A stretch of 64,000 bases of DNA from Escherichia coli (lineage in GTDB: Bacteria > Pseudomonadota > Gammaproteobacteria > Enterobacterales > Enterobacteriaceae): assembly GCF_003334405.1 (NCBI RefSeq), contig NZ_QOWM01000005.1; one strand, given 5' to 3'. The translations under genes and the position numbers were made by a program. The notes under the pieces were generated by a model. That model did not search any database. It saw only the letters and a program-made list of their open reading frames with translations, and was not told where the DNA came from. Position 1 is the first letter of the stretch, and each line of letters begins with the position of its first letter. Below, piece by piece: positions 55,765 to 58,883 of this stretch.

Positions 55765-57743
<1,979 letters not shown>

Positions 57744-57745
<2 letters not shown>

Positions 57746-58883
57746 GTCAGAGCCCCTCGATCTCAATCAGTTAGCGCAAAAAATTAAACAGTGGGGGCTG
57801 GAACTGGGCTTTCAGCAGGTAGGTATTACCGATACCGATCTCAGCGAGTCCGAGCCCAAACTGCAAGCATGGCTGGACAAACAATACCACGGCGAAATGG
57901 ACTGGATGGCACGTCACGGTATGCTGCGCGCTCGCCCTCATGAGTTATTGCCCGGTACGCTGCGCGTGATCAGCGTGCGGATGAATTACCTTCCTGCTAA
58001 CGCCGCATTTGCCAGCACGCTGAAAAACCCCAAACTCGGCTATGTTAGCCGTTATGCGCTGGGCCGTGACTATCACAAACTTCTGCGCAACCGACTCAAA
58101 AAGCTGGGCGAGATGATTCAGCAACATTGTGTTTCGCTGAATTTTAGACCGTTTGTCGATTCTGCGCCTATTCTCGAGCGCCCGTTAGCTGAAAAAGCTG
58201 GGCTCGGCTGGACAGGTAAGCACTCACTTATCCTCAATCGCGAGGCCGGTTCGTTCTTCTTTTTAGGCGAATTGCTGGTCGATATTCCGCTGCCCGTGGA
58301 TCAACCAGTCGAGGAAGGATGCGGCAAATGCGTGGCCTGTATGACGATTTGCCCGACCGGTGCCATCGTCGAGCCATATACCGTCGATGCTCGCCGCTGT
58401 ATCTCTTATCTCACCATCGAACTTGAAGGGGCGATCCCGGAAGAGTTGCGACCGTTAATGGGAAACCGTATTTACGGTTGCGATGACTGCCAGCTTATCT
58501 GCCCGTGGAATCGCTATTCACAACTCACCACAGAAGAGGATTTCAGCCCGCGTAAGCCGCTACACGCACCGGAACTCATTGAGTTATTCGCCTGGAGCGA
58601 AGAGAAGTTTTTAAAAGTCACGGAAGGATCGGCGATTCGTCGTATTGGTCACCTGCGTTGGCTGCGTAATATCGCCGTAGCATTAGGCAATGCCCCTTGG
58701 GATGAAACGATTTTGACAGCGCTGGAAAGTCGTAAAGGTGAGCACCCACTTCTCGATGAGCACATAGCGTGGGCGATTGCGCAGCAAATAGAGAGACGAA
58801 ATGCGTGCATAGTCGAAGTGCAATTGCCGAAAAAACAGCGTCTGGTTCGGGTGATTGAAAAAGGGTTACCGCGTGACGCCTGA
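57744..58883 (+). CDS. queG: Epoxyqueuosine reductase QueG (YjeS)
   Basis: Track ORF from 57636; ATG 57744 gives [23 protein letters not shown], 379 aa as recalled; Cys-rich 4Fe-4S motifs (CGKCVACMTICP, CDDCQLICP). Confidence 0.9.

Follow-up and report, generated by a model that had tools for sequence, protein, structure and literature searches.

The divergent genes nnr and queG of Escherichia coli meet head to head at a CATG palindrome that carries both of their start codons. It is probable that both starts are genuine, that the expression signals of each gene are written into the coding sequence of its partner and that the resulting overlap would be mutually antagonistic. The window, meaning the whole stretch of 64,000 nucleotides that was analysed, is 100% identical to K-12-type genomes in the junction region. 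The junction was confirmed to be real, conserved and previously known, and the standard annotation was reproduced. [quoted passage not shown]

The CATG junction and its two start codons

The features of the junction are as follows, with positions referring to the window.

57743-57746: CATG palindrome with both start codons, giving a 2-bp overlap of the coding sequences (sequence, RefSeq and conservation)
56198-57745, minus strand: nnr (yjeF) coding sequence, 515 aa (ORF and RefSeq)
57744-58883, plus strand: queG (yjeS) coding sequence, 379 aa, beginning MSEPLDLNQ (ORF and RefSeq)
57753-57758, minus strand: nnr SD sequence GAGGGG, 7 nt before the nnr ATG, -7.2 kcal/mol
57728-57730, minus strand: next in-frame ATG of nnr (MKKNPV), weak SD, not conserved

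Direct reading of plus-strand positions 57740-57747 gives cgtCATGt. The nnr ATG runs from 57745 to 57743 on the minus strand (CAT on the plus strand) and the queG ATG occupies 57744-57746 on the plus strand, so that bases 57744 and 57745 are shared. The preliminary description had stated this sharing of two base pairs and had placed the next in-frame nnr ATG at 57730-57728, and it was right on both counts. The identical 2-bp overlap is annotated by RefSeq/PGAP in each of three diverse E. coli genomes as well as in K-12 MG1655, where queG is found at 4392928..4394067 on the minus strand and nnr at 4394066..4395613 on the plus strand.

For comparison, 80 queG loci were used, with one genome per species, and nnr was located in each of them. 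The CATG with an open nnr frame was present in 29 Enterobacterales genomes besides E. coli, among them Escherichia albertii, Citrobacter, Enterobacter, Kluyvera, Cedecea, Pantoea, Mixta, Serratia, Yersinia, Rahnella, Budvicia, Edwardsiella, and others. Judged from these alignments, the conservation of the junction exceeds chance.

It had also been proposed that the true nnr start is the MKKNPV ATG at 57730, in which case the annotated overlap would be an artefact of choosing the longest ORF; the coding sequences would then be separate, with 13 nt (57731-57743) between the start codons. Several observations agree with this proposal. An ATG is present at this position in E. coli and in eight other genomes. 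The Pfam YjeF_N domain of Nnr starts at residue 40, so that residues 1-15 are an N-terminal extension and a truncation by five residues should be tolerated. The conservation of codons 1-4 (MTDH) could be due to the queG leader rather than to nnr translation. Furthermore, a soil MAG (locus L020, 2440-2502) carries a 1-nt indel between the CATG and the second ATG and leaves MKKNPA as the only possible nnr start; this indel represents either a real lineage without the overlap or an assembly error.

However, a start at MKKNPV in E. coli is improbable. The ATG of the CATG is universal, whereas the second-ATG position was found to hold, in the 30 genomes including E. coli, an ATG in 9 cases, GTG in 2, TTG in 4 and a non-start codon in 13, and the two Edwardsiella genomes have an adjacent ATG-ATG in place of the spaced second ATG. 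In the 13 genomes with a non-start codon there, the CATG ATG is the sole ATG, GTG or TTG in the stretch from the upstream stop to the conserved S[IL]PHSVW residues, and a 12-nt insertion between the CATG and these residues in Pseudescherichia keeps the nnr frame. Codons 5-11 vary freely in sequence across the compared genomes. The calculated duplex with the anti-SD sequence has a free energy of -7.2 kcal/mol for the CATG ATG, whereas the second ATG reaches -3.2 and an upstream TTG +1.3. The SD ahead of the CATG ATG is kept in all 29 other genomes, where its values range between -4.5 and -12.2 kcal/mol; on the queG strand it corresponds to CCCCTC, which runs from the last base of queG codon 4 through codon 5 to the second base of codon 6. 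A start at MKKNPV would moreover create no promoter space either. We infer from these comparisons that the CATG ATG is the translated nnr start and that the overlap is not a start-codon artefact, so the proposal of an MKKNPV start was not upheld.

Another reading, held to be just as improbable, is that E. coli starts nnr at either ATG, which would generate two isoforms that differ by five residues. The two in-frame ATGs are 15 nt apart on a single leader, the second of them is retained in Escherichia, Citrobacter and a small number of further genera and, given its presence in E. coli, some nnr initiation may occur there. Yet the second site has no conserved SD and its ATG is missing in most genera, so that the extra isoform would be lineage-specific and probably functionless. 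No match for nnr or queG translation-start or N-terminal peptide data was found in the TRAINSPOTTER N-terminomics and TetRP supplements. The upstream TTG at 57766, corresponding to a 522-aa ORF, was considered as an nnr start and rejected, given that it has no SD and that stops intervene in several genera. Directly 5' of the nnr SD on the nnr leader, at queG codons 6-7, there is a GATC (Dam) site (57759-57762) that is kept in most, but not all, of the Enterobacterales compared. The downstream operon includes mutL, and the location of the site beside the SD is probably a coincidence.

The queG ATG is found at the same position in 29 of 29 other Enterobacterales genomes, the residues that follow are conserved, and there is no further in-frame start codon for about 50 codons. 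That this start is mis-annotated and truly lies upstream, at GTG 57636, or downstream is very improbable. The plus-strand ORF is indeed open back to GTG 57636 and the SD ahead of ATG 57744 is weak (-2.2 kcal/mol), but the published 5' end at about 57720 excludes the GTG, and a downstream start is opposed by the conserved position and N-terminal residues.

The first AUG on the predicted queG leader is an out-of-frame ATG located 10 nt upstream of the queG start. It opens a 17-codon ORF (57734-57787, plus strand) that overlaps the queG start, and it is the reverse complement of the nnr His4 codon CAT, which is invariant in Enterobacteriaceae. This ORF was considered as a conserved small protein and discarded: from genus to genus it is anywhere between 8 and more than 30 codons long, and a conserved peptide is therefore unlikely. 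It could, however, compete with queG initiation.

At the other end of queG, RefSeq contains yjeV (WP_010723271.1), a 17-aa hypothetical protein encoded antisense to queG at 58866-58919 on the minus strand, which overlaps the queG 3' end by 18 nt in a convergent manner. Three tandem tRNA-Gly(GCC) genes (59153-59451, minus strand), named glyV, glyX and glyY in K-12, are located between queG and orn and produce repeated pseudo-ORFs in the ORF list.

Transcripts and probable promoters inside the partner genes

The preliminary description had considered that the promoters might lie within the partner coding regions and had suggested transcript mapping as a check. Such maps have already been published. 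They place the promoter of the nnr operon about 388 nt into queG and the queG 5' end about 25 nt into nnr, in agreement with this suggestion. The corresponding features are as follows.

57704-57712, plus strand: putative queG extended -10 element TGgTATACT, reverse complement of nnr codons 12-14
57719-57721, plus strand: queG transcript 5' end, published boundary U00096.2 4392114 (window 57720), leader of about 24 nt
58141-58146, minus strand: putative -10 element TAAAAT of the nnr operon, reverse complement of queG codons 133-135
58132-58134, minus strand: promoter and transcription start site (TSS) of the nnr operon, Conway et al. promoter U00096.2 4391701 (window 58133), leader of about 388 nt
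57720-58133: region transcribed on both strands, 413 nt, published dsRNA locus

Published coordinates were transferred by means of the siRNA reads CAUGACGGACCAUACAAUGAAG (4392087-4392109) and AUUGAGAUCGAGGGGCUCUGA (4392066-4392087). Both match the window exactly, and a window position therefore equals 4449834 minus the U00096.2 coordinate. Conway et al. reported a plus-strand operon with its promoter at 4391701 and its terminator at 4408049, as well as a divergent overlap of 413 nt in the interval U00096.2 4391701-4392114 (both collated in PMC7373196); these ends were derived from RNA-seq coverage, not from 5'-triphosphate enrichment. From the layout of the supplement table, we infer that the far end of the divergent overlap is the 5' end of the queG transcript. 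No match for a second TSS data set for the junction was found in the supplements of ROSE and of Romero et al. In the data of Conway et al. the nnr operon is the most complex of all, with 14 genes and 8 promoters (PMC4161252). At its beginning, the tsaE start at 56226 lies 29 nt within the nnr 3' end (56198-56226, minus strand), a co-directional overlap that is unusually long compared with the common ones of 1 or 4 nt; tsaE begins MM..., so that a start 3 nt downstream is also possible.

The junction was also detected in dsRNA studies. The yjeS/yjeF locus belongs to the top 20 dsRNA clusters that derive from coding genes and corresponds to the p19 cluster S-361 of the 5' overlap class (PMC7373196), which covers U00096.2 4391754-4392109, or window 57725-58080 (PMC7373196 supplement). 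The dsRNA MS-212 of Lybecker et al., classified as 'Divergent', covers U00096.2 4391717-4392100, or window 57734-58117 (collated in PMC7373196). S-361 and MS-212 show balanced sense and antisense reads, some of which cross the CATG, and the short dsRNAs at the junction were read by the authors as RNase III decay intermediates (PMC7373196).

Both published 5' ends are located 7-8 nt downstream of a -10 hexamer, that at 57720 after TATACT and that at 58133 after TAAAAT. The element TGgTATACT had been singled out via its conservation ahead of the comparison with the published transcript coordinates. It fits the extended -10 criteria, with TG at -15/-14, a hexamer with A2 and T6, and a 5' end 7-8 nt further on; the hexamer is TATACT in E. 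coli and TAAACT in others. Thus, queG resembles the extended -10 (TGn) class of sigma-70 promoters in the TG one base upstream of the hexamer and in the weak -35 element, but differs from this class in that its promoter sits in the coding sequence of a divergent gene, where it fixes the codons AGT-ATA-CCA. Read by eye, both -35 hexamers are poor, matching at 3 of 6 positions at best, and a weak -35 is what is expected for the extended -10 class. A consensus scan for promoters and terminators in 57200-58300, with a threshold of 4/6 in both hexamers, returned nothing; this follows from the weakness of both -35 elements and is not evidence of absence. By eye, there was no convincing -35 of a sigma-E-like or sigma-32-like motif at the nnr promoter. 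An Rfam scan of 57500-58400 (E<=1) gave no match, and a known riboswitch or leader element therefore does not explain the conservation. Taken from the sequence and the published transcript ends, TGgTATACT and TAAAAT are probably the promoters actually used by queG and the nnr operon, respectively.

The proposed mechanism can be described as follows. queG would be transcribed by sigma-70 from the extended -10 in nnr codons 12-14, starting at about 57720 and giving a leader of about 24 nt. nnr is the first gene of the long nnr-tsaE-amiB-mutL-miaA-hfq... operon and would be transcribed from the TAAAAT in queG codons 133-135 with a start at about 58133. Its leader of about 388 nt, antisense to queG codons 1-130, would thus face the first third of queG, and translation of nnr from the CATG ATG would depend on the GAGGGG that overlaps queG codons 4-6. 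The primary transcripts share 413 nt of complementary sequence, in which both ribosome-binding regions lie, and the pair forms dsRNA in vivo, with the captured short dsRNAs interpreted as RNase III cleavage products. Each polymerase would also have to cross the promoter of the other gene. Mutual antagonism through collision, occlusion and RNase III may therefore be expected. Interference between nnr and queG, which the preliminary description had suggested and which the published dsRNA locus partly foreshadowed, is plausible on these grounds.

Synonymous constraint and evolutionary depth

Ungapped codon alignments of 17 Enterobacteriaceae-like genomes were used, in which codons without synonymous variation represent about 6% of the 331 evaluable queG codons and about 4% of the 182 evaluable nnr codons. 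The complete list of invariant runs of at least three codons in these 17 genomes consists of queG 4-6, queG 131-135 and nnr 12-14. The reverse complement of queG codons 4-6 (CCC CTC GAT; Pro-Leu-Asp) holds the nnr SD, that of queG codons 131-135 (TCG CTG AAT TTT AGA) holds the nnr -10 and the bases up to the TSS, and that of nnr codons 12-14 (AGT ATA CCA; S-I-P) is the extended -10 of queG. The last of these is the sole synonymously invariant run in the first 260 nnr codons, and the fully invariant nnr codons are five in number, namely, 2, 4, 12, 13, and 14. Under a stricter definition, the observed run length was attained by 23 of 20000 shuffles of the invariance flags for queG and by 35 of 20000 for nnr.

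Both ATA and AGA are rarely used by E. coli. The nnr Ile13 ATA, the queG Arg135 AGA and the Pro-Leu-Asp triplet appear to be frozen because their reverse complements are the -10 hexamers and the SD of the partner. Synonymous invariance that includes rare codons shows selection on the signals themselves, not on their interaction. In genome recoding projects, synonymous swaps of these frozen codons can consequently be expected to alter the expression of the neighbouring gene. The far-upstream nnr promoter appears to be a feature at the level of the family, because codon 135 of queG, which is AGA in 17 of the 17 Enterobacteriaceae-like genomes, becomes CGN outside this group, as seen in Pantoea, Mixta, Serratia, Budvicia, Acerihabitans, and Edwardsiella.

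The queG promoter is apparently older. nnr has moved away in Brenneria and Pectobacterium, and no nnr adjoins queG in Photorhabdus and Xenorhabdus; all four genera retain TGnTAnAnT 31-34 nt upstream of the queG ATG. This motif therefore belongs to queG, since it is retained where nnr does not overlap. In those Vibrionales, Alteromonadales and Aeromonadales that have a divergent nnr, the motif (e.g., CTGTGGTAAACT) overlaps the nnr S-[LI]-P-[HQ] codons, and the gap between nnr and queG amounts to about 3 to 53 nt when the most plausible starts are used. As the queG promoter of these outgroups is already located in the first codons of nnr, the overlap in Enterobacterales is seen as the extreme of an old compaction. 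In Tolumonas (Aeromonadales; L071:2450-2505), too, the genes meet head to head at a CATG from which the nnr frame is open. The orders between Enterobacterales and Tolumonas have mostly short spacers, and the Tolumonas CATG could be due to convergence or retention.

Interference, compaction and comparison with known systems

The starts and promoters may be as described above and the overlap may nevertheless result from neutral genome compaction, with the antisense RNA and the dsRNA as mere by-products. We consider this almost as likely as its opposite, though somewhat below even. Overlapping 5' ends are common in E. coli, where they were found in 136 of 388 divergent operon pairs (Conway et al. 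2014, mBio, PMC4161252), and for this reason a neutral by-product stays a serious possibility. In addition, tiny spacers that grade from 3 to 53 nt separate the two genes in the outgroups, where the queG -10 is within nnr as well, and the far-upstream nnr promoter is limited to one family, so that the long overlap is not ancestral. On the other hand, the promoter elements are synonymously invariant and contain rare codons, an argument for selection that concerns the signals and not their interaction, and the junction ranks within the 20 most abundant coding-gene clusters of dsRNA (PMC7373196).

A stronger proposal is that the junction acts as an excludon-type toggle, in which the transcript in excess silences the other via RNase III. 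This is unlikely. If it held true, queuosine maturation (queG) would be inversely coupled to the nnr-tsaE-amiB-mutL-miaA-hfq superoperon, and the expression of several tRNA-modification genes would be linked. The junction is of use for annotation hygiene and as a teaching example of a rare head-to-head overlap of coding sequences in E. coli that does not stem from a wrongly called start. A gene-finder with a penalty on head-to-head overlaps would err here.

Head-to-head overlaps are sometimes suspected to be start mis-calls, notably in the literature on long overlaps. The nnr-queG pair differs from such suspected cases in that it is backed by conservation, by an SD and by the absence of alternative starts in many genera. 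[quoted passage not shown] Like nnr-queG, the head-to-head pairs described by Huvet and Stumpf 2014 (PMC4161906) have opposite-strand coding sequences whose 5' ends overlap, here by 2 nt.

At the level of transcripts, nnr-queG is itself listed among the overlapping divergent operons and nothing about it differs in kind (PMC4161252; PMC7373196). Its overlap of 413 nt is longer than the mean of 168 nt for the overlapping divergent operons of E. coli (PMC4161252) and the coding sequences overlap here too, which is much rarer. Overall, the layout is that of a compact overlapping-divergent-operon junction, a tidy and ordinary case despite its rarity.

The excludon, a concept from Listeria cited in Conway et al., denotes divergent operons under a long antisense 5' transcript (PMC4161252). 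A functional excludon is defined by reciprocal repression, and nnr-queG resembles one in layout. Two aspects are excludon-like: the long nnr leader (about 388 nt) is fully antisense to the 5' part of queG, and this antisense RNA doubles as the mRNA of its own operon. Unlike in the excludon, however, both transcripts cover the ribosome-binding sites of each other and the functions of the genes are not obviously opposed.
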